From IMG/VR virus record IMGVR_UViG_3300033802_000281: 64,000 nt of DNA. The stretch is one strand, 5' to 3'. This DNA comes from a virus. The notes under the pieces were generated by a model. It ran no database searches and was not told the DNA's origin. It saw only the letters and a list, made by a program, of their open reading frames with translations. Made by a program: the position numbers and the translations under genes. How positions within the stretch are numbered: position 1 is the first letter of the stretch; each line of letters opens with the position of its first letter. Shown here piece after piece: positions 12,904 through 59,690 of the stretch.

Positions 12904-14325
12904 ATGGCGGTAGATCCTATGCTAACAGTAAGTGATGTTGCTAAGCAACTTAAGGTAACAGAACAATATGTAAGAACTTTATTACGCAAAGGCGAGTTAC
13001 AGGCCGAAATGGTCGGCAAACAATGGATTATACAGCCTGAGGCTGTCGAGAAATATATCAAAGACAATAATATCGTGATAGAGCCTGATGACCGTCCAAA
13101 TAAAAGCGGTAAATTGCCTGATATAATTGCCCTCAGCTTCTTTTCCGGGGCTATGGGTCTTGACATTGGTCTAAGAAAAGGTGGGATTGAGCCTATACTC
13201 GCCTGTGAAATCGAAAAGCACTGTCGTATGACTATATCAGCCAATAATCCCGATATAGCACTTATAGGCGATATAAACAAATACTCTGCAGATAAAATAC
13301 TTGAATTTGCTGGCATACCAAAAGGCAGAAAAGTTGATGTTATAGTTGGTGGACCACCTTGTCAGGCATTTTCATCTGCAGGCGCTCGTAGAGGACTGTA
13401 CGACGAAAGAGGAAACGTGTTTTTAACATTCATTGACCGTATAGTTGAAATACAACCTACATACGCAGTAATCGAAAACGTAAGGGGTCTGTTGTCGTCT
13501 GAATTCCCATACTCAGATGAATTAACTCTTGAAGAATGTATTGAGGCAGGAATTGAGCCGATAAAAGGCGGAGCACTACTTCACATCCTCAGACGACTTC
13601 GTGAAGTAGGTTACAGTATATCCTTTGAACTTTATAACGCCGCAAATTTTGGAACTCCTCAGATACGTGAGCGTCTCATAATGATTGCATATCATGGTGA
13701 TGAGAAAGTAGGATACCTTACACCTACCCACTCAGAAAATGGCGAATATGGACTGCCTAAGTGGAATACTTTAAGGTCGGCTCTAAATCAGCTACTTACA
13801 GATGTTGAGCATCATTACGTTGAGTTCCCGGAAAAACGGCTAAAATACTATCGTATGCTAACAGAAGGACAAAACTGGCGTGACTTGCCAGAGGATGTAC
13901 AAAAAGAAGCTATGGGCAAGTCCTACTACCTTGGTGGTGGAAAAACTGGCTTCTTACGTCGGCTTGCTTTTGATAAGCCATCACCTACACTTGTCACACA
14001 TCCTGCTATGCCTGCTACTGATTTATGCCATCCCGTAGAGGATAGACCGCTGAGCGTCGAAGAATATAAGGTCATTCAGGGATTTCCACTTGACTGGAAG
14101 ATATGTGGCTCAATACTTGAACAATACAAACAGATTGGTAATGCCGTGCCAATAAAACTGGGCGAAGCTATTGCTAAGAAAATATTAGACCATATGAACG
14201 GCAAACAGATAGAAATACCCGTAGGCTTTAGATTTTCAAGGTATATCAATACTGACGAGGTTTCATGGGAGAAAGAAACACGTAAAAGACTAACCCTTAA
14301 GTTAGAGCAGTTATCCTTAGTATAA
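12904..14325 (+). CDS. DNA (cytosine-5)-methyltransferase with N-terminal excisionase-like HTH domain
   Basis: motifs FFSGAMG, GGPPCQAFS, ENVRG, QIRER, QIGNAVP; N-term LTVSDVAKQLKVT HTH; no cognate endonuclease adjacent. Confidence 0.95.
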   Translation: MAVDPMLTVSDVAKQLKVTEQYVRTLLRKGELQAEMVGKQWIIQPEAVEKYIKDNNIVIEPDDRPNKSGKLPDIIALSFFSGAMGLDIGLRKGGIEPILACEIEKHCRMTISANNPDIALIGDINKYSADKILEFAGIPKGRKVDVIVGGPPCQAFSSAGARRGLYDERGNVFLTFIDRIVEIQPTYAVIENVRGLLSSEFPYSDELTLEECIEAGIEPIKGGALLHILRRLREVGYSISFELYNAANFGTPQIRERLIMIAYHGDEKVGYLTPTHSENGEYGLPKWNTLRSALNQLLTDVEHHYVEFPEKRLKYYRMLTEGQNWRDLPEDVQKEAMGKSYYLGGGKTGFLRRLAFDKPSPTLVTHPAMPATDLCHPVEDRPLSVEEYKVIQGFPLDWKICGSILEQYKQIGNAVPIKLGEAIAKKILDHMNGKQIEIPVGFRFSRYINTDEVSWEKETRKRLTLKLEQLSLV

Positions 14326-37123: not shown

Positions 37124-37176
37124 TTTGGGCTAACGCCCATTATTTTTTTAAAATAAAAATAAAAAATAAAAAAGTA

Positions 37177-37206
37177 TTGACAATGTGTAATAGAATCTGA
37201 TATATT
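37177..37206 (+). promoter_or_regulatory. sigma-A promoter of tRNA operon with A-rich UP element
   Basis: TTGACA-N18-TATATT, extended -10. Confidence 0.7.
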
Positions 37207-37223: not shown

Positions 37224-37300
37224 GGGCCTTTAGCTCAGTAGGTTAGAGCAGTCGGCTCATAACCGACCGGTCGTAGGTTCGAGTCCTACAAGGCCCACCA
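37224..37300 (+). tRNA. tRNA(CAU), most likely tRNA-Ile2 (lysidine type)
   Basis: canonical cloverleaf, CTCATAA loop, C4-G69/C5-G68, A73; near-identical to B. subtilis tRNA-Ile2 as I recall it. Confidence 0.85.
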
Positions 37301-37418
37301 AAATTAAAAAATAGGTGACAATAAATTAATTCCCTAAAGTGCTGTAGTTGTAGTCTTTAAATGGATAGATGAAATGCACAATCAGGATGTTTTGATTAGG
37401 CGGTAACTGTTCAGACAT

Positions 37419-37493
37419 CCCGATCTAGGTAAGTCTGCGGCAAGTGGCACAATCCCTTGTTGCGGTCGCGGGTTCGAGTTCCTGCAATCGGGG
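37419..37493 (+). pseudogene. degenerate tRNA-like sequence
   Basis: CCCGATC/AATCGGG acceptor-like stem, GGTC + GCGGG-TTCGAGTT-CCTGC T arm; anticodon arm and D arm disrupted. Confidence 0.5.
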
Positions 37494-37536
37494 TAAGGGA
37501 TCGGGGTTATCCCAGTCGCCGTCCAGATGGACGGAT

Positions 37537-38185
37537 GGGATGCGGTGGCGGAAAAGGTTAAAGGTGATAGCATTGGCAGTTAAAAAAGAACATATTTTCA
37601 TTGATGGTAAAGAAATGAAAGAATGCTCTAGATGCAAGATAATTAAAGAGTTATCCATGTTTAGGAAAGATAAAGGAAAATGGGATGGATTATATCCATA
37701 TTGCAAAGAATGTGCTTCTGCGAAGGATAAGGAAGTTTATAGAAAAAACCCTTCAAAGAAAAAGCTATTGTAAAACAATATATGATACGAACAGGGAAAA
37801 TAAGAGAATACAAACCTTATAATCCAAAGTATTATTCTTCTGTGAAATCGAGATTAAAAAAGAGATCGAGGCATCTAAAGAGAAGGGTTTTAAAGAAAAA
37901 TGCTGATCTGGAATTTGTTGTTTCACACGAAACGATCAAAAAAATTATAGATAAGTACAACGGCAAATGTGCATATTGCAACAAAGACTGTTCTGATAAT
38001 TTTCACATAGATCATAAAGTACCGCTTTCAAAAGGCGGTGGAAACGAATTTAAAAATTTAGCCCTATCTTGTCCAAGATGCAATTTTAGTAAGAAAGACA
38101 AAACAGATGTAGAATTTGTAGGTCGTAAAGTATAATGGTAAACTTGAGACGACCATGCAAGGTGCAAATCCCTGCCCGCATCCCA
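37537..38185 (+). ncRNA. tRNA-like scaffold split around an HNH gene
   Basis: 5' GGGATGCGG-TG-GCGGAAAAGG; 3' GGTCGT/ACGACC stem, GCAAGG-TGCAAAT-CCCTGC T arm, CCGCATCCCA; 9 bp end-to-end complementarity. Confidence 0.6.
37573..38135 (+). CDS. HNH homing endonuclease split by a -1 frameshift (37573-37773 + 37782-38135)
   Basis: N-term KECSRC...CKEC zinc finger; C-term CAYC...HIDHKVPLSKGGGN...NLALSCPRCNFSK. Confidence 0.85.
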
Positions 38186-38217
38186 ATTACATAATTACAA
38201 TTAATATCTTATTGTTT

Positions 38218-38293
38218 ACCGTCTTAGCTCAGTGGTTAGAACACTTGCCTTGTAAACAAGGTGTCGGCGGTTCAATTCTGTCAAGCGGCGCTA
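38218..38293 (+). pseudogene. degenerate tRNA-Thr(UGU)
   Basis: TAGCTCAGTGGTTAGA D arm, CTTGTAA loop, T arm intact; 2 acceptor and 1 anticodon-stem mismatches; ends GCTA. Confidence 0.7.
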
Positions 38294-38338
38294 ACTAATT
38301 AAAAACAAAAAATAGTGTTTAGTTAAGGAGGAAATTTT

Positions 38339-38926
38339 ATGAGTGAACAACGTAAAATGACTATCGCTCGTGCCCTTACACGTCTTAAAACAATTAAGGC
38401 GCAACTTCAGAAAATCAATAATGACATTGGTAATTACGGAGCAATTAGTAGCAAATCACGTTCGCCACTCGGTGATCCTAAAGCTTCTTTGGATAAAAAT
38501 CATAATCAGGCTATTGAACATATTAGATCTTTGTATCAACAATTTGAGGATCTTACAAAAGAATATATTAAGATTAAGACTGCAATTGATAAGGCAAATA
38601 TGCAAACTATAATTATGGTTGCTAATAAAACCATGACTATTCAAGAAGCACTTGTATATCGTCGTGATATTTCTAAATTTGTACAAGAATTGCTTGGTAA
38701 ATATGGTCAAGCAGTAAATCGCGCAACGGACGAAGTTTACAGACATAATGCATCAATTAAGACGGATGGTATGGATGAAGCTGCTGTGAAGGTAGTTTTA
38801 TCTGAAGTTCTTTATCTAGTGCCAAAAGAGAAAATTCATGAATCTGAAAATTTCCTTACAACCTTTTTGACTGAATTAGATGGCACCCTTAATGAAGTTA
38901 ATGCAATAACTGAAATTGAAATTTGA
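38339..38926 (+). CDS. helical coiled-coil protein, resembling the DIP1984-like family
   Basis: N-term MTIARALTRLKTI, C-term ELDGTLNEVNAITEIEI; SD AAGGAGG. Confidence 0.65.
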   Translation: MSEQRKMTIARALTRLKTIKAQLQKINNDIGNYGAISSKSRSPLGDPKASLDKNHNQAIEHIRSLYQQFEDLTKEYIKIKTAIDKANMQTIIMVANKTMTIQEALVYRRDISKFVQELLGKYGQAVNRATDEVYRHNASIKTDGMDEAAVKVVLSEVLYLVPKEKIHESENFLTTFLTELDGTLNEVNAITEIEI

Positions 38927-38936
38927 TAAAATAAAA

Positions 38937-39171
38937 TATGCTTGCATGACGTAGTAAACCCTAAATATGACCAACAAACTATGAAAAACTATTTTTGGTA
39001 AATCAAAAATAAGTGTTAAGTGTTGAGTGGTTAGTGTTTAGTCATAAGTTTTATCAGTGGTTAGTATTAAGTTATAAGTGTTTGACAAAATCCTGTTTCC
39101 AACTTTATTTCCCTGTCGGGATACCCGAATGGTCATCGGTGGGTGGGAGGAATAGGCTGTCTTGTAAGCAT
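38937..39171 (+). ncRNA. structured RNA with internal array of ten 7-nt repeats (NAGTNNT)
   Basis: closing helix ATGCTTGCATGAC/GTCTTGTAAGCAT; repeats at 39011-39082; AAACCC and ACAAAATCC flank the array; no ORF. Confidence 0.7.
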
Positions 39172-39189
39172 AATGACAATCATTAACCG

Positions 39190-39260
39190 ATCTGCCTGAA
39201 TGTATCTACGGATTTTCAGGTAAAGTGTACCCGAGATTACCTACGGGTGCTCGGGTACAG
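39190..39260 (+). ncRNA. two hairpins each capped by a cUACGg tetraloop
   Basis: CCTGAA..ATC-TACG-GAT..TTCAGG and TGTACCCGAG..ACC-TACG-GGT..CTCGGGTACA. Confidence 0.6.
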
Positions 39261-39270
39261 ATAATTATAT

Positions 39271-39357
39271 GCGGATATGGCGGAACAGGCAGACGCAGCG
39301 GACTTAAAATCCGCTTCCCATAAGGGAGTAAGGGTTCGAATCCCTTTATCCGCACCA
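39271..39357 (+). tRNA. tRNA-Leu(UAA)
   Basis: class II cloverleaf, CTTAAAA loop, TCCC/GGGA variable arm, CCA. Confidence 0.95.
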
Positions 39358-39387: not shown

Positions 39388-40569
39388 ATGGCAGAGGAAA
39401 AGACTCTAGTGAAAGTTAACAAAAAGCATGGCGGAAAGGAATTTTCGTCTTTTTTTCGTTTCGTCGGCTTAGTAAAACCAGTTAGAAAATTTAACAATGA
39501 TACTGGTGGATGGGAAGAACAGCCTATTTTTCAAGAAACAATTACAAGAACACAAAAACCTCGTCGCATACTACAATTTAATGTAGAAACAGCGCCTAGT
39601 AATGAACTTAAAGTTGAATTTTCTGCAATGGAGCAAGAATATGTTTTTGCGTATAGTAGCACACATAAAAAAACTGCAAAAATTAAGTGGGAAAATCGAT
39701 TCGATAAATCAAGATGGAAAGACGAAAATGAACAAGTAACAATTGATAATACATATCACTTAATTACATCTGATTGGGACAAGATACTTGAACTTGCTGA
39801 AAAAGTTGATGATAAAAAGATTAACGAAGGTCTTTGGGTTGAAGTAACTGGTGTTTATGAACCAAATGAATTCCCCGATAGCGATGGAAATAATCGCATT
39901 GTATTTAAGCGTATAATTAACAATATTCGACCCATTGTTAACGGGAAAGTATTAGGCGATGATGGGAAAGAACGTCCGATTAAAATCAACGGAAATGAAA
40001 TTAATTATATAACAGACTTTAATTCACCAGACTTTGTAGAAGTAAATTATTTTTTGATGCAAATTGGAATTCGTTCCACATATCAAGATGAAAATACAAA
40101 AGATACAAAAGTTAATGCTGTGTATCTTACATATGGGAAAGAAAGATCGACACCGTATGATATTGAATTAACAGTTCCATATCGAGAGCCATCTGAAGGT
40201 AAGAAAGCACTTGCTGATGCATTTTCTACATTGCAATATGGCGATTTTATCGAAGTAACAGGAACTGATAACAACCGTGTAGAATTTGCAGAAATTGAAG
40301 TGGATGAAAATTTTGATCCTGATGATCCATTTAATGATGCGGAAGGGAAGACAGTTCGTAAAAGACGAGTAGTATCAGGAGATAAAAAAGGTTTAGAAGT
40401 ATTAGGATTTGTTGCTGGTACACGGATGAAAAATTTCTTAACGGAAGAAGAAATTACTAAAGAAAATAATAATAGTGAAAATCCATTTGCAAATAATAAT
40501 CAAGAGTACGATCCATTTAGCGATAATAGTAAACCACTTGATTTGTCTGAAGACGATTTATCATTTTAA
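39388..40569 (+). CDS. putative phage single-stranded DNA-binding protein (SPbeta YorF-like position)
   Basis: beta-rich; acidic tail ...DPFSDNSKPLDLSEDDLSF; upstream of AAA ATPase; track ORF start lies inside tRNA-Leu. Confidence 0.65.
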   Translation: MAEEKTLVKVNKKHGGKEFSSFFRFVGLVKPVRKFNNDTGGWEEQPIFQETITRTQKPRRILQFNVETAPSNELKVEFSAMEQEYVFAYSSTHKKTAKIKWENRFDKSRWKDENEQVTIDNTYHLITSDWDKILELAEKVDDKKINEGLWVEVTGVYEPNEFPDSDGNNRIVFKRIINNIRPIVNGKVLGDDGKERPIKINGNEINYITDFNSPDFVEVNYFLMQIGIRSTYQDENTKDTKVNAVYLTYGKERSTPYDIELTVPYREPSEGKKALADAFSTLQYGDFIEVTGTDNNRVEFAEIEVDENFDPDDPFNDAEGKTVRKRRVVSGDKKGLEVLGFVAGTRMKNFLTEEEITKENNNSENPFANNNQEYDPFSDNSKPLDLSEDDLSF

Positions 40570-42946: not shown

Positions 42947-43478
42947 TGGAAGTGGGAAAACTACGATAATGCGAAGTGTTATGAATAATGAGATTATAAG
43001 TTTTACAACAAGAAGTCCAAGACAAGGGGAAGTTAACGGTAAAGATTATATTTTTATTTCTGAAGAACAATTTCAAGATTATCTTAATAAAAATGAACTA
43101 ATAGAATATACATATTACGGTGGAAATTATTATGGAATGATTAAGTCAGAGATAGATTACAAGCTTAGTTTAGGTGATGCTTTTGCGATTGTTGATTATC
43201 ATGGTATGAAACAACTGAAAAAACTATATGAAAATACACTAACAATATTTATCTATATTGATAAAGAACAGGCCATTCATAATATGCGAAGTCGCGGTGA
43301 TTCGGAAGAATATATCAAGAAACGTATGGAAACATATGACGAAGAAGTGACAAACTTAGTATTTTATGATGAAGTAGTGACAAATTATCCTAATGAGTTA
43401 CAACAAGCAATTGAAGATGTAAGAAATATTTTATATTTCATGGAGGAAATAAATGAAAAAGAAACGTATCGGAATTGA
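42912..43478 (+). CDS. gmk: guanylate kinase-like nucleotide kinase
   Basis: GCSGSGKT; TTRSPRQGEVNGKDYIF; YYG. Confidence 0.85.
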   Translation: MKNRLILVSGCSGSGKTTIMRSVMNNEIISFTTRSPRQGEVNGKDYIFISEEQFQDYLNKNELIEYTYYGGNYYGMIKSEIDYKLSLGDAFAIVDYHGMKQLKKLYENTLTIFIYIDKEQAIHNMRSRGDSEEYIKKRMETYDEEVTNLVFYDEVVTNYPNELQQAIEDVRNILYFMEEINEKETYRN

Positions 43479-44037
43479 TATGGATCAAGTGATTGCGGAT
43501 ATTATGAGTGAATGGCTTAGAAGATATAATAACGATTATAATGATAATCTTTCTCCAAAAGATATTACAGAATGGAATTTTCATAATATTGTAAAACCAG
43601 AGTGTGGAAAAAAGATCTACACTTATTTAGATGATCCTGATTTATTTAGAAACTTGCCTGTAATTGATGAAAGTCAAGATGCAGTTTATGAATTGTCAAA
43701 AAATTATGAAATATTTATAATTACAGCCCCATTCAATCCAAACAATATCCTTCCTAAATATGATTGGTTAAAAAAGAATTTTAATTTTATATCTGAAAAA
43801 AATTACGTTTTTACTAGAAATAAATCAATCGCTAATACAAATTGGTTGATTGATGATAATCCAGATAATTTTATAGGATATTCAGGCGAACCTCTTCTTT
43901 ATAATGCACCGCACAACAAGTCATATCAAGGCGATATACTAAGATTTGATAATTGGCAGGAGATTGTATTTTATTTTGATTGGATTCAAAATGTTCAGGA
44001 GGAGCTTCTTAGTGAGAGACAAAAACAAGTGGGATAA
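43453..44037 (+). CDS. 5'(3')-deoxyribonucleotidase (NT5C, HAD)
   Basis: IGIDMDQVIAD; KYDWL; WLIDDNP; PHN. Confidence 0.9.
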   Translation: MKKKRIGIDMDQVIADIMSEWLRRYNNDYNDNLSPKDITEWNFHNIVKPECGKKIYTYLDDPDLFRNLPVIDESQDAVYELSKNYEIFIITAPFNPNNILPKYDWLKKNFNFISEKNYVFTRNKSIANTNWLIDDNPDNFIGYSGEPLLYNAPHNKSYQGDILRFDNWQEIVFYFDWIQNVQEELLSERQKQVG

Positions 44038-46869: not shown

Positions 46870-47661
46870 TTGAGTAAGAAACTACTTGGAAGCCTTCAAC
46901 TAAACCGTATTTATCAAATGGATTGTTTAGAAGGTATGAAACTGATTCCTGATAAAAGTATTGATATGATTTTGTGCGATTTACCTTATGGCACAAGTGC
47001 TTGTAGTTGGGATACTGTAATCCCATTTGAACCACTTTGGGAGCAATACAAACGCATCATTAAAGATTTTGGAGCAATCGTTCTTACAGCAAGTCAGCCC
47101 TTCACGACATTATTGATTAACAGTAATTTCGAGTGGTTTAAGTATTGCTGGGTTTGGGAGAAATCAGTTTGTGGCGATGTTTTTAATGCTAAAAATAAAC
47201 CTTTAAAGAAGCACGAAGATATTGTTGTGTTCTCTAACGGAACAACCGCAAATGGCTCCAAAAAGAAAATGCCCTACTTCCCACAAGGGCTTGTTGAAAT
47301 CAATAAAACCGTAAAAAACATTGAAACGACAAGAGCATTTTTCGCTCCAAGACCTTCACATAAAGAATCATATACTCAAAAATTCACCAACTATCCTACA
47401 AGCATTCTTAAATATGATAATGATAAAGGGTATCACCCAACACAAAAGCTTGTTGCACTTTTTGAATACCTTATTCGTACATATACAAAAGAAAATGAAA
47501 TTGTCCTCGATAACTGTATGGGTTCAGGGACTACCGCCGTTGCCGCAACATTAACAAAGCGTAACTGGATTGGCTTTGAGACGGAGGCTAAATACATAGA
47601 AATAGCCAACAAACGTCTGGATCAGATTCAACTTGAAGATGATTTAGCAAAGTACGATTAA
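46870..47661 (+). CDS. N6/N4 DNA methyltransferase (beta class), paralog 1
   Basis: CDLPYG, HPTQK, LDNCMGSGTT. Confidence 0.95.
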   Translation: MSKKLLGSLQLNRIYQMDCLEGMKLIPDKSIDMILCDLPYGTSACSWDTVIPFEPLWEQYKRIIKDFGAIVLTASQPFTTLLINSNFEWFKYCWVWEKSVCGDVFNAKNKPLKKHEDIVVFSNGTTANGSKKKMPYFPQGLVEINKTVKNIETTRAFFAPRPSHKESYTQKFTNYPTSILKYDNDKGYHPTQKLVALFEYLIRTYTKENEIVLDNCMGSGTTAVAATLTKRNWIGFETEAKYIEIANKRLDQIQLEDDLAKYD

Positions 47662-47853: not shown

Positions 47854-49170
47854 AAATCCACCACAAGAAAGCCCCTGCCTTTAGGCATGGGGATGAATTG
47901 TGGTGGGATAAGTTGGTAAAAACTTGATTTTCATAACTAAAATATGATATATTTATTACAAGAAAAAAAGAACGGAGGTGACATTTGTGCAATCTATCAC
48001 CGTAAAAATAAGATTTTTTCCTGATAACCCAAAGGTCATTAAAGAAGCATCACAAGAATACATCAATATTGTCAATAGACTATCACAACAGGCAGTTGAA
48101 AATCAATCGTTTCCTAAAATCACAACAAAAGATATTTCAACTTTTCTTCCATCTGCTGTTTGCAATCAAGCGATCAGAGACACAAAATCTGTATATACCA
48201 AATATAAAAAGACCAAAAAAATATCTGTTCTCAAGAAGCCAGTATATTATATTAATAATCAAAATTATACCATCCTTGATAATACAATTGCATTTCCTAT
48301 ATCTATTAATGGAAAAACGAAAAAGACATTTTTTAAAGCCATTCCAACAGATAGAGATATGGAATTAATCAAAAAATCCAAACTTGGTCTTATGCGTATT
48401 GTTGAAAAATCAGGAAAATGGTATGCTCAAGTGTCCATTCAAATTCCAGAAGAAAAAACGAATGGCGAAAATATCATGGGTATTGATCTTGGCTTAAAAG
48501 TTCCTGCTGTTGCTGTAACATCAACAGGTAAAACCAGATTCTTTGGCAATGGTAGACAAATCAAATATGTTAGACGCAAATATCAGTCTCACAGAAGGAA
48601 ATTAGGTAAACTTAAAAAACTTTCGGCTATCAAGAAACTAAGCGATAAAGAAAGCAGATGGATAAAAGACCAAAATCATAAAATCAGTAGACAGATTGTG
48701 AATTATGCGATTCAAGAAAATGTATCTCTAATCAAATTGGAAAGATTAGAAAATATCCGTAAGACGACAAGAACAAGTCGTAAAAACGCAAAGAATCTGC
48801 ATAACTGGTCGTTCTATCAACTGCAACAGTTTATCACATATAAGGTTAACTTGGCAGGAATCAAAGTTATAGAAGTTAATCCTGCATACACAAGTCAAAT
48901 ATGCCCTTGTTGTGGTAAACGAAATAAAGCAGATGATAGACAATATGAATGTTCATGCGGATTCAAAACACACAGAGATCGGGTTGGAGCGATTAATATT
49001 ATGCGTCAACCTGTGGCAGATGGTAACAGTCTGCCAGCCTAAGAACCTATATGGTCTGTCTTAGGATGGGCTGATGGCACAGCCCCTAACTTGGAGATTG
49101 CATGAAGCAGAAATGCATGAGTGCGTGAATCATCCAAGAATCCCCCGGATTTATCCGTGGGGAGTGTCAA
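47854..49170 (+). mobile_element. IS200/IS605-family element (IS608-like ends, tnpB only)
   Basis: TTAC target at left; LE AAAG-CCCCTGCCTTTAGGCATGGGG; RE GAAT-CCCCCGGATTTATCCGTGGGG-AGTGTCAA; no tnpA. Confidence 0.92.
47987..49042 (+). CDS. tnpB: TnpB RNA-guided endonuclease
   Basis: RuvC GIDLG / LERLEN / HRDRVGAINI; CPCC...CSCG zinc finger. Confidence 0.95.
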   Translation: MQSITVKIRFFPDNPKVIKEASQEYINIVNRLSQQAVENQSFPKITTKDISTFLPSAVCNQAIRDTKSVYTKYKKTKKISVLKKPVYYINNQNYTILDNTIAFPISINGKTKKTFFKAIPTDRDMELIKKSKLGLMRIVEKSGKWYAQVSIQIPEEKTNGENIMGIDLGLKVPAVAVTSTGKTRFFGNGRQIKYVRRKYQSHRRKLGKLKKLSAIKKLSDKESRWIKDQNHKISRQIVNYAIQENVSLIKLERLENIRKTTRTSRKNAKNLHNWSFYQLQQFITYKVNLAGIKVIEVNPAYTSQICPCCGKRNKADDRQYECSCGFKTHRDRVGAINIMRQPVADGNSLPA

Positions 49171-49994: not shown

Positions 49995-51197
49995 GTGATA
50001 AACATAGAAATAAATAATATTTATCATGGTAATTGCATTGAATTATTAAGAGAGTTAGAAGATAATTCAATTGATTCTATTGTCACAGATCCCCCATATG
50101 AATTAGGTTTTATGGGTAAAAAATGGGATTCAACGGGAATCGCTTATAATGTTGAAATGTGGAAAGAATGCTTGCGTGTTCTTAAGCCCGGAGGACATTT
50201 ATTAAGTTTCGGTGGTTCACGGACATATCATAGAATGGCTTGTACTATTGAAGACGCAGGATTTGAAATTCGAGATCAAATTATGTGGATATATGGGAGC
50301 GGTTTTCCAAAATCATATGATATAAGTAAAGGAATTGATAAAAAATTTGGGGCAAAAAGAGAAGTAGTGGGAAAACGAGTACATCCCACGTTAAAAAATA
50401 AACCTAATATTAAATCAAGAGCATACCATGTTGAAACTCTAAACAGTAATGAAAATATGGAATCGTGGGATATTACTGCTCCAGCTACAAATGAAGCAAA
50501 ACAATGGTCTGGATGGGGGACAGCACTAAAACCTGCTCATGAACCTATTGTTGTGGCACGAAAACCGTTGAGCGAAAAAAATGTTGTAGATAATGTGCTT
50601 AAATGGGGTACTGGTGGAATTAATATTGATGCGTGTAGGATTGAAACAAATGAGGATTTAACAAGAAATTGCATGGGATTAGCAAGTTCCAGTAACGAAG
50701 GATGGAAAAGACCGTGGCATGAAAAAGCTATAAAACAAGTGTTTGAATCAACTAACGGAAGATTTCCTGCAAATATCATTTTTGATGAAGAAGCAAAAAG
50801 ATTATTAGATGAGCAAAGTGGAATTACAAGAAGTACAAAGGTAAAAAATAAAAAAAAGTCATATGATGGAGAATCTTTTACAGGAATGTTGAGAGGTATT
50901 TCAACACCTGACATTCAATACAATGATGTTGGAGGAGCAAGTCGGTTTTTCTACTGCGCTAAAGCATCGAGAAAAGAACGTGGAGAAGGGAATAATCATC
51001 CAACAGTAAAACCAATTGCTCTTATGAAATATTTAATTAAACTTGTAATGCCACCCAATGGAATAGTTCTCGATCCGTTTGCTGGTAGTGGTACAACTTT
51101 AGTTGCTGCTAAAAAATTAGGATTTAACTACATAGGATTTGAAATAGAAGAACAATACATAGAAATAATAAATAAAAGATTATCGACAATACCATAA
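49995..51197 (+). CDS. N6/N4 DNA methyltransferase (long phage type)
   Basis: TDPPY, HPTVKP, LDPFAGSGTT. Confidence 0.95.
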   Translation: MINIEINNIYHGNCIELLRELEDNSIDSIVTDPPYELGFMGKKWDSTGIAYNVEMWKECLRVLKPGGHLLSFGGSRTYHRMACTIEDAGFEIRDQIMWIYGSGFPKSYDISKGIDKKFGAKREVVGKRVHPTLKNKPNIKSRAYHVETLNSNENMESWDITAPATNEAKQWSGWGTALKPAHEPIVVARKPLSEKNVVDNVLKWGTGGINIDACRIETNEDLTRNCMGLASSSNEGWKRPWHEKAIKQVFESTNGRFPANIIFDEEAKRLLDEQSGITRSTKVKNKKKSYDGESFTGMLRGISTPDIQYNDVGGASRFFYCAKASRKERGEGNNHPTVKPIALMKYLIKLVMPPNGIVLDPFAGSGTTLVAAKKLGFNYIGFEIEEQYIEIINKRLSTIP

Positions 51198-53894: not shown

Positions 53895-54129
53895 ATGCTC
53901 AATGAAATGCTAATTGGCTAAATATTATTTCTGGGTTCGTCTAGACAAACTTTCAGAATATGTAGAAGTGCCAGATGAATTATTAGAATGCTTAGATGAA
54001 AAGCAAAAGGAAAAAGTTCTGTTCCAAGAACATAATAAGTGGTGCAGAAAGCAGTATTGCGGTGATTGGGAATTAGTAAAATCACGATAAAATACGGGTT
54101 TCATGGTAATAAGAAAGGAGATAAAGTGT

Positions 54130-54912
54130 TTGGGAAAAGAATTGTTGGGAAGCCTAGAGTTAAATAGGATTTATCAAATGGACTGTTTGGAAGGTATGAA
54201 ACTGATTCCCAATAAATCAATTGATATGATTTTATGTGATTTACCTTATGGTACAACTGCTTGTAAATGGGATACCATTGTTTCATTAGATAAGCTCTGG
54301 GAACAATACGAAAGGATAATTAAAGATAATGGTGCAATAGTTCTTACTGCTCAAACACCTTTTGATAAAGTCTTAGGAGCAAGTAATTTAAAATTATTGC
54401 GCTATGAGTGGTTATGGATTAAAGAACAAGGAACAGGAAATCTAAATGCTAATAAAATGCCATTAAAGCAACACGAAAATATTCTCGTATTTTATAAACA
54501 ACTGCCAACTTACAATCCACAAATGACTGAAGGAAAGCCATATAAAATTAAACGTAATAAAAATAACAATGAAATTTTTGGGAAAACTGGAACGAGAGAT
54601 GGTTATATAACTGAAAACGAAGGAATGAGATATCCCACAAGTACGCTTTATTTTAGAAGGGAATTGAAACCGAGATATCATCCGACACAAAAACCAGTAG
54701 CATTGTTTGAATACTTGATTAAAACATATACAAATCAATGCGAAATAGTTTTAGATAATTGTATGGGTTCAGGCACTACAGCGGTAGCAGCATTAAAGTG
54801 TAATCGTAAATTCATAGGATTTGAAACTGAACCCAAATACATAGAAATTGCAAATAAAAGAATTGAAAGCATGTATAATGAATTAGAAGATCAGAAATTA
54901 AATATCCTATAA
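54130..54912 (+). CDS. N6/N4 DNA methyltransferase (beta class), paralog 2
   Basis: CDLPYG, HPTQKP, LDNCMGSGTT; TTG start with SD AAGGAG. Confidence 0.95.
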   Translation: MGKELLGSLELNRIYQMDCLEGMKLIPNKSIDMILCDLPYGTTACKWDTIVSLDKLWEQYERIIKDNGAIVLTAQTPFDKVLGASNLKLLRYEWLWIKEQGTGNLNANKMPLKQHENILVFYKQLPTYNPQMTEGKPYKIKRNKNNNEIFGKTGTRDGYITENEGMRYPTSTLYFRRELKPRYHPTQKPVALFEYLIKTYTNQCEIVLDNCMGSGTTAVAALKCNRKFIGFETEPKYIEIANKRIESMYNELEDQKLNIL

Positions 54913-58749: not shown

Positions 58750-59655
58750 TTGAATATTATGGAGGTAAATAAAATATATAATACAGATTGTATAGAAGGA
58801 ATGAAATCTTTAGATCCAAATTCAATTGCTTGTTGTATAACTGATCCTCCTTATAATTATGAATTTGTCGGTAAGGATTGGAACATTGAAGAAATTAAAA
58901 GAAGAACTAAAAGAGTTAAAAATTCTAATACACTTGTTAAAAATATACCTTATGGTAGTGGATTATCAGGAGGTATTAGAAATAAAAGATGGTATGAAAA
59001 GAATAGAGAGAATATTTTAAATTACGAAAAATGGGTTGAAAAATGGGGCGATGAATTATTTCGGATATTAAAACCCGGTGGTTTTGTATTTGTTTTTAAT
59101 AGTACAAGAACTATCGCACATGTCCAAGTAGCTCTCGAAAATGTGGGATTTTATGCAAGAGATATTATAGTATGGATGAGAAATAGTGGAATACCAAAGG
59201 GATTAAATATGACTGTAAAATTAAAAAAAATGGGAGTTGAAAATCCTGAACAATGGAAAGGTTGGCATAGTGCTTTAAGGAATGAATGGGAAGCAATATG
59301 TGTCTTACAAAAACCATTAAAGAATAATTATTATGAAACTATTGTTAATTATAATATTGGTTTATTAAATGTAAAAGATGAATATGGTTTTAAATCAAAT
59401 ATTATTAAAAATATCAAACAAGAAAAGAAAGATGATTTTAACACTCATTGTACCATAAAACCAAAGGAATTAATAAAATACTTGATCAACCTTTCAGTTC
59501 CAAAGCATATTGAAAATATAGTAATTGATCCATTTATGGGTAGTGGTACTTTAGCAGTAGCCTGTAAAGAACTGGGTGTAAATTACATAGGATATGAAAT
59601 TAATAAAGAATATATAGAAATAGCGGAAAAAAGATTAAAAAATGTAATCCGATAA
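58750..59655 (+). CDS. N6/N4 DNA methyltransferase
   Basis: TDPPYN, HCTIKP, IDPFMGSGT. Confidence 0.93.
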   Translation: MNIMEVNKIYNTDCIEGMKSLDPNSIACCITDPPYNYEFVGKDWNIEEIKRRTKRVKNSNTLVKNIPYGSGLSGGIRNKRWYEKNRENILNYEKWVEKWGDELFRILKPGGFVFVFNSTRTIAHVQVALENVGFYARDIIVWMRNSGIPKGLNMTVKLKKMGVENPEQWKGWHSALRNEWEAICVLQKPLKNNYYETIVNYNIGLLNVKDEYGFKSNIIKNIKQEKKDDFNTHCTIKPKELIKYLINLSVPKHIENIVIDPFMGSGTLAVACKELGVNYIGYEINKEYIEIAEKRLKNVIR

Positions 59656-59690
59656 AATGAGAATTTTATTGAATTATGGAGGGTAGTTTA

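Follow-up and report, generated by a model that had tools for sequence, protein, structure and literature searches.

What is a long non-coding segment doing between a protein gene and a tRNA gene in viral DNA? The locus in question lies in a 64,000-nucleotide (nt) stretch, IMG/VR virus record IMGVR_UViG_3300033802_000281, the whole of which we call the window, and consists of a gene for a 195-amino acid (aa) protein and the segment directly behind it, in an operon that also holds tRNA genes. A preliminary description, made from the letters of the window, had reported the 195-aa open reading frame (ORF) followed by a non-coding segment, and both lie where it placed them; the 344-nt stretch that separates this ORF from the downstream tRNA-Leu gene is free of ORFs. 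Our results support that the segment is a real structured RNA, conserved, expressed and genetically linked to the gene. We also think it fairly probable, judging from the repeats and from the predicted protein, that several copies of the protein dock on an array of ten 7-nt units (heptads) in this RNA and so form a defined ribonucleoprotein particle.

A structured RNA conserved behind the gene

Protein searches gave 30 close homologues, and the element was found 3′ of the gene in 24/24 distinct loci, that is, wherever a collected locus extends far enough downstream, with protein identities between 97% and 39%. Among the collected loci the RNA never occurs without its protein gene. The carriers are viral contigs, metagenomes, genome contigs of Cytobacillus, Lysinibacillus, Ureibacillus and Bacillus, and a 137-kb Paenibacillus replicon. 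A conserved helix and repeats behind the homologues, on which the preliminary description had made its reading depend, are present at these loci, and four helices covary. In the MAFFT alignment 80.4% of the cells were paired against 68.9% in shuffles, and the covariation score was 0.364 against 0.170, with 0/500 shuffles reaching either value; slid controls gave 32–51% paired, and 19 pairs were changed on both sides. We also used a partner-swap (self-versus-cross duplex) test on 13 clade representatives, which is independent of the alignment. Self and cross duplexes differed for helix P1 (−18.1 versus −10.5 kcal/mol), P2a (−8.5 versus −5.5 kcal/mol) and P2 (−9.0 versus −5.0 kcal/mol), each at p = 5e-5, and for the pairing of the P4 loop with a 5′ strand (−3.8 versus −2.3 kcal/mol, p = 8e-4). 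Selection acts on the RNA and not on the DNA, because G-U pairs are invariant and the strand is fixed.

The element is also transcribed. Contigs identical to the window and confined to the element were present in four phyllosphere metatranscriptome runs, with a word depth 3 to 50 times that of coding-sequence contigs: in run X8 the element contig covers 38952–39170 at a word depth of 196, with 3.7 for the coding-sequence contig, and the corresponding depths are 55 and 2.4 in X10 (38947–39192) and 44 and 3.4 in X12 (38948–39157). In X15 the element contig (38829–39219) has a depth of 11.6 and no contig is confined to the coding sequence. This pattern is the trace expected of a discrete stable RNA of ~220–245 nt. 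A characterised Rfam family, which would have removed the novelty, was not found: the region 38927–39270 has no match in Rfam 15 at the gathering threshold or at E ≤ 10, and the same search of seven related loci at E ≤ 0.1 gave only tRNAs and two weak sub-threshold matches outside the element. A literature search found no paper describing the pair of protein and heptad RNA.

The RNA begins 11 nt past the stop codon of the 195-aa ORF, and its parts are listed with the neighbouring features in Table 1. Its closing helix, P1, had been noted before at 38937–38949 with 39159–39171; the helix stands, with its limits moved slightly to those in the table. P1 has 14 positions, including one U-U mismatch and two G-U pairs, and in the MAFFT alignment 93.9% of its cells are paired, with 6/11 counted pairs changed on both sides. 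For P2a the paired share of cells is 81.5%, and both sides are changed in 4 pairs; it joins sequence of the AAACCAC type directly after GUAA to sequence of the GUGGUUU type preceding GGAGGA and reaches 5–8 base pairs in other clades, and variants are ACUGC/GCAGU, AAGCUAC/GUAGCUU, AAUCAC/GUGAUU and AAACUCAU/AUGGGUUU. P2, which pairs CCUGU..UCC with GGA..AUAGG, is 89% paired with 3/5 pairs changed on both sides (variants CCUGU/AUAGG, CCCGU/ACGGG, CCUAA/UUAGG and CCCGA/UCGGG). P2a and P2 cross, and the core is therefore a pseudoknot, with the heptad array sitting in the long loop between the 5′ strands of the two helices.

The remaining elements are smaller. The P3 hairpin is capped by UUCG or GAAA in relatives, and P4 is 54% paired on the MAFFT alignment owing to 1-nt register shifts. 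The helix between the P4 loop and the 5′ strand is 66% paired, in a place where that alignment is imperfect, and takes the forms AACUG/CAGUU, UACCA/UGGUA, CAGUCA/UGACUG and AAGUCA/UGACUU in other loci. The region of the hairpin that precedes the array is variable in length and holds one to three larger hairpins in other clades. Besides the junction and the GGCUG of Table 1, the A and G of the heptads and an ACUU after P2 are invariant. AAACCC and ACAAAATCC, which had been taken as brackets around the repeats, are not a matching pair: the former (38956–38961) contributes the 5′ strand of P2a, and the latter is a linker into P2.

Table 1. Position of the structured RNA, its parts and the neighbouring features in the window.
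Feature	Position	Strand	Remarks
Sigma-70-like promoter, predicted	37177–37206	+	TTGACA-18-TATATT with TG; consensus match alone, 11/12
tRNA-Met(CAU)	37224–37300	+	first gene of the operon; 74 bits
tRNA-Thr(UGU)	38218–38291	+	ends 47 nt before the protein gene
Gene for the 195-aa protein	38339–38926	+	ribosome-binding site AAGGAGG 38325–38331; stop TGA 38924–38926
Whole structured RNA, 234 nt	38938–39171	+	bounded by closing helix P1
P1, 5′ strand	38938–38951	+	pairs with 39158–39171
Conserved junction CGNNGUAA	38950–38957	+	C, G, G, A, A invariant in 24 sequences
P2a, 5′ strand (ACCC)	38958–38961	+	pairs with GGGU 39141–39144
Tertiary pairing, 5′ strand (UGACCA)	38968–38973	+	partner is P4 loop UGGUCA 39130–39135
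Variable hairpin before the array	38990–39011	+	−4.7 kcal/mol, z −4.9
Heptad array, ten units U-N-A-G-U-G-N	39010–39082	+	73 nt; six + four, 2-nt insert after unit 6
P2, 5′ strand CCUGUUUC	39092–39099	+	pairs with GGAAUAGG 39149–39156
P3 hairpin (UCCC-UGUC-GGGA)	39110–39121	+	read from alignments
P4 hairpin (CCGA-AUGGUCA-UCGG)	39125–39139	+	loop takes part in the tertiary pairing
Invariant GGCUG between P2 and P1	39155–39159	+	present in phage T5 and Cronobacter phage versions too
Two C(UACG)G-capped hairpins	39194–39259	+	between the RNA and tRNA-Leu; without U-tract
tRNA-Leu(UAA)	39271–39357	+	begins 99 nt 3′ of the RNA

The heptad array and the protein

The ten near-tandem heptamers with an extra AT that had been noted before are recovered by Tandem Repeats Finder, which reports period 7, 10.1 copies and the consensus TAAGTGT over exactly the array. 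A phased search for four copies of TNAGTNN has the array as its sole match in 64 kb (0 expected from 100 shuffles), and the spacing of the units (7, 7, 7, 7, 7, 9, 7, 7, 7) shows that the additional AT after unit 6 is real. Across 17 clade representatives A3 and G4 are invariant, U1 is kept in 96%, U5 in 91% and G6 in 60%, and N2 and N7 are free; ten units in the 6 + 2 nt + 4 layout are found in most copies and are kept across clades. The array is C-poor, and the comparative alignment contains no covarying helix inside it. With U1, A3, G4 and U5 fixed at a strict 7-nt phase and N2 and N7 free, the array looks like a read-out site. As had been argued earlier, it is not CRISPR (24–48 nt repeats with unique spacers), the units being 7 nt long, contiguous and spacerless. 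Two further ideas about this region were rejected. A fold-back of units 3–6 on units 7–10 fails by inspection, the free N2 positions not being complementary, and a 57-aa ORF at 39013–39186 was dropped as a peptide gene because the 7-nt period of the array and its indels cannot hold a reading frame.

The protein is a helical bundle in the model predicted by AlphaFold (AF2), with a predicted local distance difference test score (pLDDT) of 93, four long helices and a small sheet built from an N-terminal strand, a β-hairpin and a C-terminal strand. Two independent structure searches gave 3KDQ as the top PDB match: Foldseek at probability 1.0 with a template modelling (TM) score of 0.49–0.61, and VIA-align at Z 10.4 with 152/152 residues aligned and a runner-up at Z 8.1. 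Clusters of 'septicolysin'/DUF6847-type proteins in AFDB also match the model at probability 1.0. The resemblance to the DIP1984-like family that had been proposed before thus holds for the fold, and the matches of hidden Markov models (HMMs) lie below their cut-offs (PF20935, E 9.5e-4 and 19.6 bits with a cut-off of 27; NF038048, 19.1 bits with a cut-off of 70). These matches are consistent across members, four of which weakly hit the same DUF6847/DIP1984 HMM region (E 1.6e-3 to 4.9e-6). A profile of the protein clade does not reach 3KDQ by sequence, and a chromosomal paralogue described below does (E 6e-5). The model supports placing the 195-aa protein as a distant member of the DIP1984/DUF6847 fold.

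Conservation is strongest in the basic N-terminus (R5, R11, R15 and K17) and at the ends of helices and strands (KIKxAIDKAN and LNEVNAxTEI). Placed by the layout of secondary structure and not by coordinates, these residues appear to gather at one pole of the bundle, and this conserved basic pole is a plausible candidate for an RNA-reading head.

Proteins of this family carry the labels 'tail fiber protein' (phrog_1491, RefSeq) and 'septicolysin', both of which look wrong and appear to lack an experimental basis for this protein family, true septicolysin being a cholesterol-dependent cytolysin. In the literature we found no mention of DIP1984, DUF6847 or 3KDQ, and the papers on 'septicolysin' merely repeat the annotation.

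A proposed particle on a heptad rail and its alternatives

In the particle that we favour, the 195-aa protein and the 234-nt RNA would come from one operon, between tRNA-Thr and tRNA-Leu, with the promoter upstream of tRNA-Met, and the RNA would be freed from the transcript and accumulate as a discrete stable species. P1, the crossing P2a and P2, P3, P4 and the pairing of the P4 loop with the 5′ strand would make a compact scaffold that holds out the 73-nt rail. One copy of the protein encoded next to the RNA would then read each of the ten UNAGU sites with its conserved basic head, comprising the N-terminal strand and helix, the β-hairpin and the C-terminal strand, and the RNA would in this way set the number and arrangement (6 + 4) of the subunits in the particle.

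That phased sites can be read in this manner has precedent, by analogy, in HutP and TRAP. TRAP is an 11-subunit β-sandwich ring that binds 11 G/UAG triplets of the trp leader and causes attenuation in cis; with about ten phased (N)AG sites, one per subunit, it is the clearest precedent for an RNA rail on a homo-oligomer. Its spacers are 2–3 nt, in contrast to the array described here, whose family has a unit number that varies by clade and an RNA with a folded core of its own. The HutP site in the hut terminator RNA of Bacillus subtilis is UAG-N4-UAG-N4-UAG, with (UUUAGUU)3 as the model RNA (PMC2425495), and it shares with the window array an NAG followed by four free bases, a period of 7, reading of many sites by an oligomer, and two blocks. 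HutP differs in being an α/β hexamer with 3 + 3 sites in a cis-regulatory leader that requires histidine and Mg2+ (PMC2425495), whereas the window system has a helical bundle of the 3KDQ fold, 6 + 4 sites and a pseudoknotted stand-alone RNA that accumulates. The window element is a stand-alone 3′ RNA and not a leader, and of the features of HutP or TRAP sites it has only the NAG-N4 spacing.

Several observations weigh against the particle. The number of units differs among clades, from ~6 to 12, and a closed ring of fixed symmetry is therefore unlikely. Single-sequence base-pair probabilities have the same mean in the array as elsewhere in the RNA (0.66 versus 0.66), and the claim that the array is an exposed single strand, to which these values give no support, was dropped. 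3KDQ is an uncharacterised Corynebacterium diphtheriae protein (DIP1984/DUF6847) without an assigned function, and to our knowledge its fold has no nucleic-acid-binding precedent. No common partner is found upstream of chromosomal DUF6847 genes, where the neighbours are heterogeneous (DpaA-like, GNAT, RNA-type metallo-β-lactamase and B3/4), so context yields no function. Lastly, the metatranscriptome contigs give neither the ends of the RNA, its strand nor its true level, and the runs share one habitat, the phyllosphere.

It is possible, though we consider it unlikely, that the locus is a sequestration module with the logic of type III toxin-antitoxin systems or of CsrB, where the ten-site RNA would antagonise the protein until degraded or out-titrated, and the protein would act elsewhere, on other RNAs or on the cell. 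Tandem short motifs do adjoin the protein gene, the heptads are clade-specific, the RNA is apparently far more abundant than the mRNA, and the pair is carried by mobile elements (phages, bacterial genome contigs and the 137-kb replicon). Type III toxin-antitoxin systems (ToxIN, CptIN and TenpIN) are likewise carried by mobile elements and pair a protein gene with an RNA of tandem repeats that binds the protein encoded beside it. ToxI repeats are ~34–36 nt long, precede the toxin gene and are cut by the toxin, ToxN having an endoribonuclease fold, whereas the repeats in the window are 7 nt long and downstream of the gene, unlike the ~36-nt upstream pseudoknot units of ToxI. The structure searches matched no nuclease fold to the 195-aa protein, which is a bundle without a nuclease or toxin fold (PADLOC models were not scanned). 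In the Csr system, CsrA/RsmE binds GGA motifs in the hairpin loops of CsrB/RsmZ, the genes are unlinked and mRNA targets of CsrA are known; there too one small protein binds in many copies to a stable RNA in which a short motif recurs many times, but the motifs in the window form a strict tandem array in an RNA that is co-transcribed with the protein. A sponge would also not need an elaborate conserved pseudoknot core.

An element acting in cis from the 3′ untranslated region (UTR), autoregulating the stability or translation of the upstream mRNA without any free particle, is improbable. It would fit an RNA that begins so close to the stop codon, is co-transcribed and always follows the gene. 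The contigs from the RNA runs, however, are confined to the element at a depth well above that of the coding sequence, and at one locus (L017) a 280-nt structured insert parts the gene from the RNA and both are retained. A covarying pseudoknot of this size with ten sites also far exceeds what known 3′-UTR stabilisers need.

We regard as very unlikely a decoy for a host protein, HutP of Bacillales for example, that recognises NAG sites spaced at 7 nt. The ten U-N-A-G-U-G-N units do share spacing and core with the HutP site and with (UUUAGUU)3 (PMC2425495), and the hosts of this RNA clade are Bacillales. HutP (PF09021) was found in just 2/4 bacterial genomes carrying this clade, however, and because it is absent from half of the hosts checked a decoy function of this kind probably does not apply generally; related modules have different heptads in hosts without HutP (e.g. 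that of E. coli phage T5), and the RNA keeps company with its own protein gene throughout. Finally, a DNA-level element (replication-origin iterons or a recombination site) can practically be set aside, for although short direct repeats adjoin the AAA_24 (Sak4-like) ATPase and other DNA-metabolism genes, compensatory changes keep RNA helices, the invariant G-U pairs would be mismatches in DNA, the element keeps one orientation to the gene, its transcript accumulates, and a period of 7 bp does not keep phase with the turns of the DNA helix.

Relatives, tRNA genes and operon context

The pair has many relatives. With the long-form protein alone, a clade profile collects 2741 clusters at 50% identity (E ≤ 1e-3). 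In phage T5 (NC_005859, L074 43142–44143) the product of T5.085, annotated 'tail fiber protein' but a distant homologue with the DIP1984 fold, matches at E 4e-19, and the unannotated gap of 363 nt (43142–43504) that lies 3′ of this gene holds a closing helix, AAAG-type heptads and GGCUG; a literature search on T5 found nothing on the T5.085 locus. In Bacillus phage Sophrita four tRNAs directly precede gp228, and its RNA is recovered at 52 bits (E 1e-13) by a covariance model of the 3′ core that was trained without Sophrita. Cronobacter phage vB_CsaP_009 is a further carrier, with a marginal match to the covariance model and a polynucleotide kinase-phosphatase (Pnkp) gene 750 nt downstream. The model does not reach the T5-type or core DUF6847 RNAs, and it is architecture and the GGCUG motif alone that suggest their kinship to the window RNA.

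Short-repeat RNAs downstream of DIP1984-like genes had been mentioned in the preliminary description, and other DUF6847 loci bear this out. In Bacillota genomes, true DUF6847 genes that pass the cut-off (15/301) are followed by a conserved RNA, with GUAC-type heptads in several and a GUGAGGGUGGGA motif at the end of most, and a second, chromosomal paralogue in the same Bacillaceae genomes (L043–L045) has its own RNA with UNACC heptads. The heptads are thus UNAGU in the window clade, AAAG in T5-type loci and L004, UNACC in the chromosomal Bacillaceae paralogues and GUAC-type in core DUF6847. Heptad sequence tracks protein clade, which is the pattern expected of cognate protein–RNA pairs.

If the pair is a particle, it would be a new kind of RNA–protein machine, and its many clusters make it a widespread one. 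Model phage T5 has the module, as do culturable phages of Bacillus (Sophrita and pW2) and Cronobacter; wrong labels on the protein ('tail fiber' or 'septicolysin') and the missing annotation of the RNA are the reasons why it was overlooked. The reading, if true, would give a function to DUF6847 and to the solved but unexplained structure 3KDQ, would provide a case of an RNA fixing the copy number of a protein assembly, and may explain in part why phages keep elaborate stable-RNA operons. More tentatively, proteins of the DUF6847 fold and heptad-rail RNAs could be an undescribed ancient class of ribonucleoprotein in which a pseudoknotted RNA is ruler and scaffold for ~6–12 subunits. T5, Tsamsa-like Bacillus phages and the window phage would then have taken it into their tRNA operons for an action on tRNA or damaged RNA, be it surveillance, protection or a counter-defence directed at host systems that cut tRNA. 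Ro60 (Rsr) with its Y RNAs, and T4 species 1 and 2 and rnaX, the latter annotated in T5 (NC_005859), which are stable RNAs of unassigned role in phage tRNA clusters, resemble it as dedicated stable non-coding RNAs partnered with or beside genes of RNA metabolism or tRNA; where a function is assigned, it lies in RNA quality control. None of these RNAs is known to carry a heptad array, and they show no resemblance to the window RNA in sequence, fold or motif.

Same-strand tRNA genes lie within ~1.5 kb in ~13/18 distinct phage loci, some of them syntenic, in about six independent lineages. A 110-kb phage contig (L012, 3913–5460) has ~19 tRNA genes directly after the heptad RNA, and two others (L033 and L027) have 8–10 tRNAs directly before the protein gene. 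This placement suggests shared tRNA-type processing or a role in tRNA/RNA metabolism: RNase P and RNase Z may free the unit by cutting at the tRNAs on either side, or the pair may be connected in function with tRNA or RNA repair. In Lysinibacillus (L043, 771–1472) and Ureibacillus (L044, 783–1472) the chromosomal DUF6847 gene is preceded, at a distance of 13 nt, by a gene for a stand-alone protein with the B3/4 domain, which belongs to the β-subunit of Phe-tRNA synthetase, and at L055 a metallo-β-lactamase with an RNA-specificity domain is encoded upstream of such a gene. These neighbours and Pnkp are a weak hint of a link to tRNA or RNA repair.

In the window itself the promoter of Table 1 probably drives the operon of tRNAs, protein and RNA, going by its sequence; a terminator-like site (37126–37139) directly precedes it and tRNA-Met directly follows. 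The two UACG-capped hairpins that had been noted ahead of tRNA-Leu both fold (39194–39221, −10 kcal/mol, z −3.5; 39226–39259, −22 kcal/mol, z −5.9). They are conserved only in the close relatives L001 and L030, more distant relatives having an intrinsic terminator in their place, and probably serve in processing or stability. Barely inside the start of ORF 39388–40569 (phrog_2367) lies another hairpin, terminator-like and with a U-tract (39430–39449), which may be an attenuator or mark the point where the tRNA/RNA operon really ends.

The DNA of the window is that of a phage or prophage, with genes for an HNH endonuclease, an AAA_24 (Sak4-like) ATPase, an integrase-like protein, a transposase (47978–49042) and six DNA methyltransferase paralogues. 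Five of the latter are of the phrog_67 type (46870–47661, 49995–51197, 54103–54912, 58750–59655 and 59676–60476), and a further methyltransferase is at 12904–14325. In DNA comparisons with GenBank phages only the tRNAs of the window match, and no close relative was found.

The HNH endonuclease ORF (37782–38135) lies between tRNA-Met and tRNA-Thr and is flanked by tRNA-like pieces at 37496–37558 and 38152–38187, which match RNA-run contigs of other organisms at 90–95%; one such contig joins 37558 to 38152, with 61 different letters in place of 593. This region (37300–38217), which had separately been read as a tRNA-like molecule split by the HNH gene, has no Rfam match. The L017 insert (3592–3876) ends in GCTAGGTGCAAATCCTAGCC, which resembles window positions 38160–38185 (GCAAGGTGCAAATCCCTGCC) in the 3′ piece of the split element, and from this likeness the two may be the same mobile or tRNA-derived element. 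At a T5-type locus (L078, 2587–3000) a T-arm-like piece, GTGGGTTCGAATCCCAC, lies between the protein gene and the heptad array, which suggests a tRNA remnant or a tRNA-like domain in or beside the RNA.

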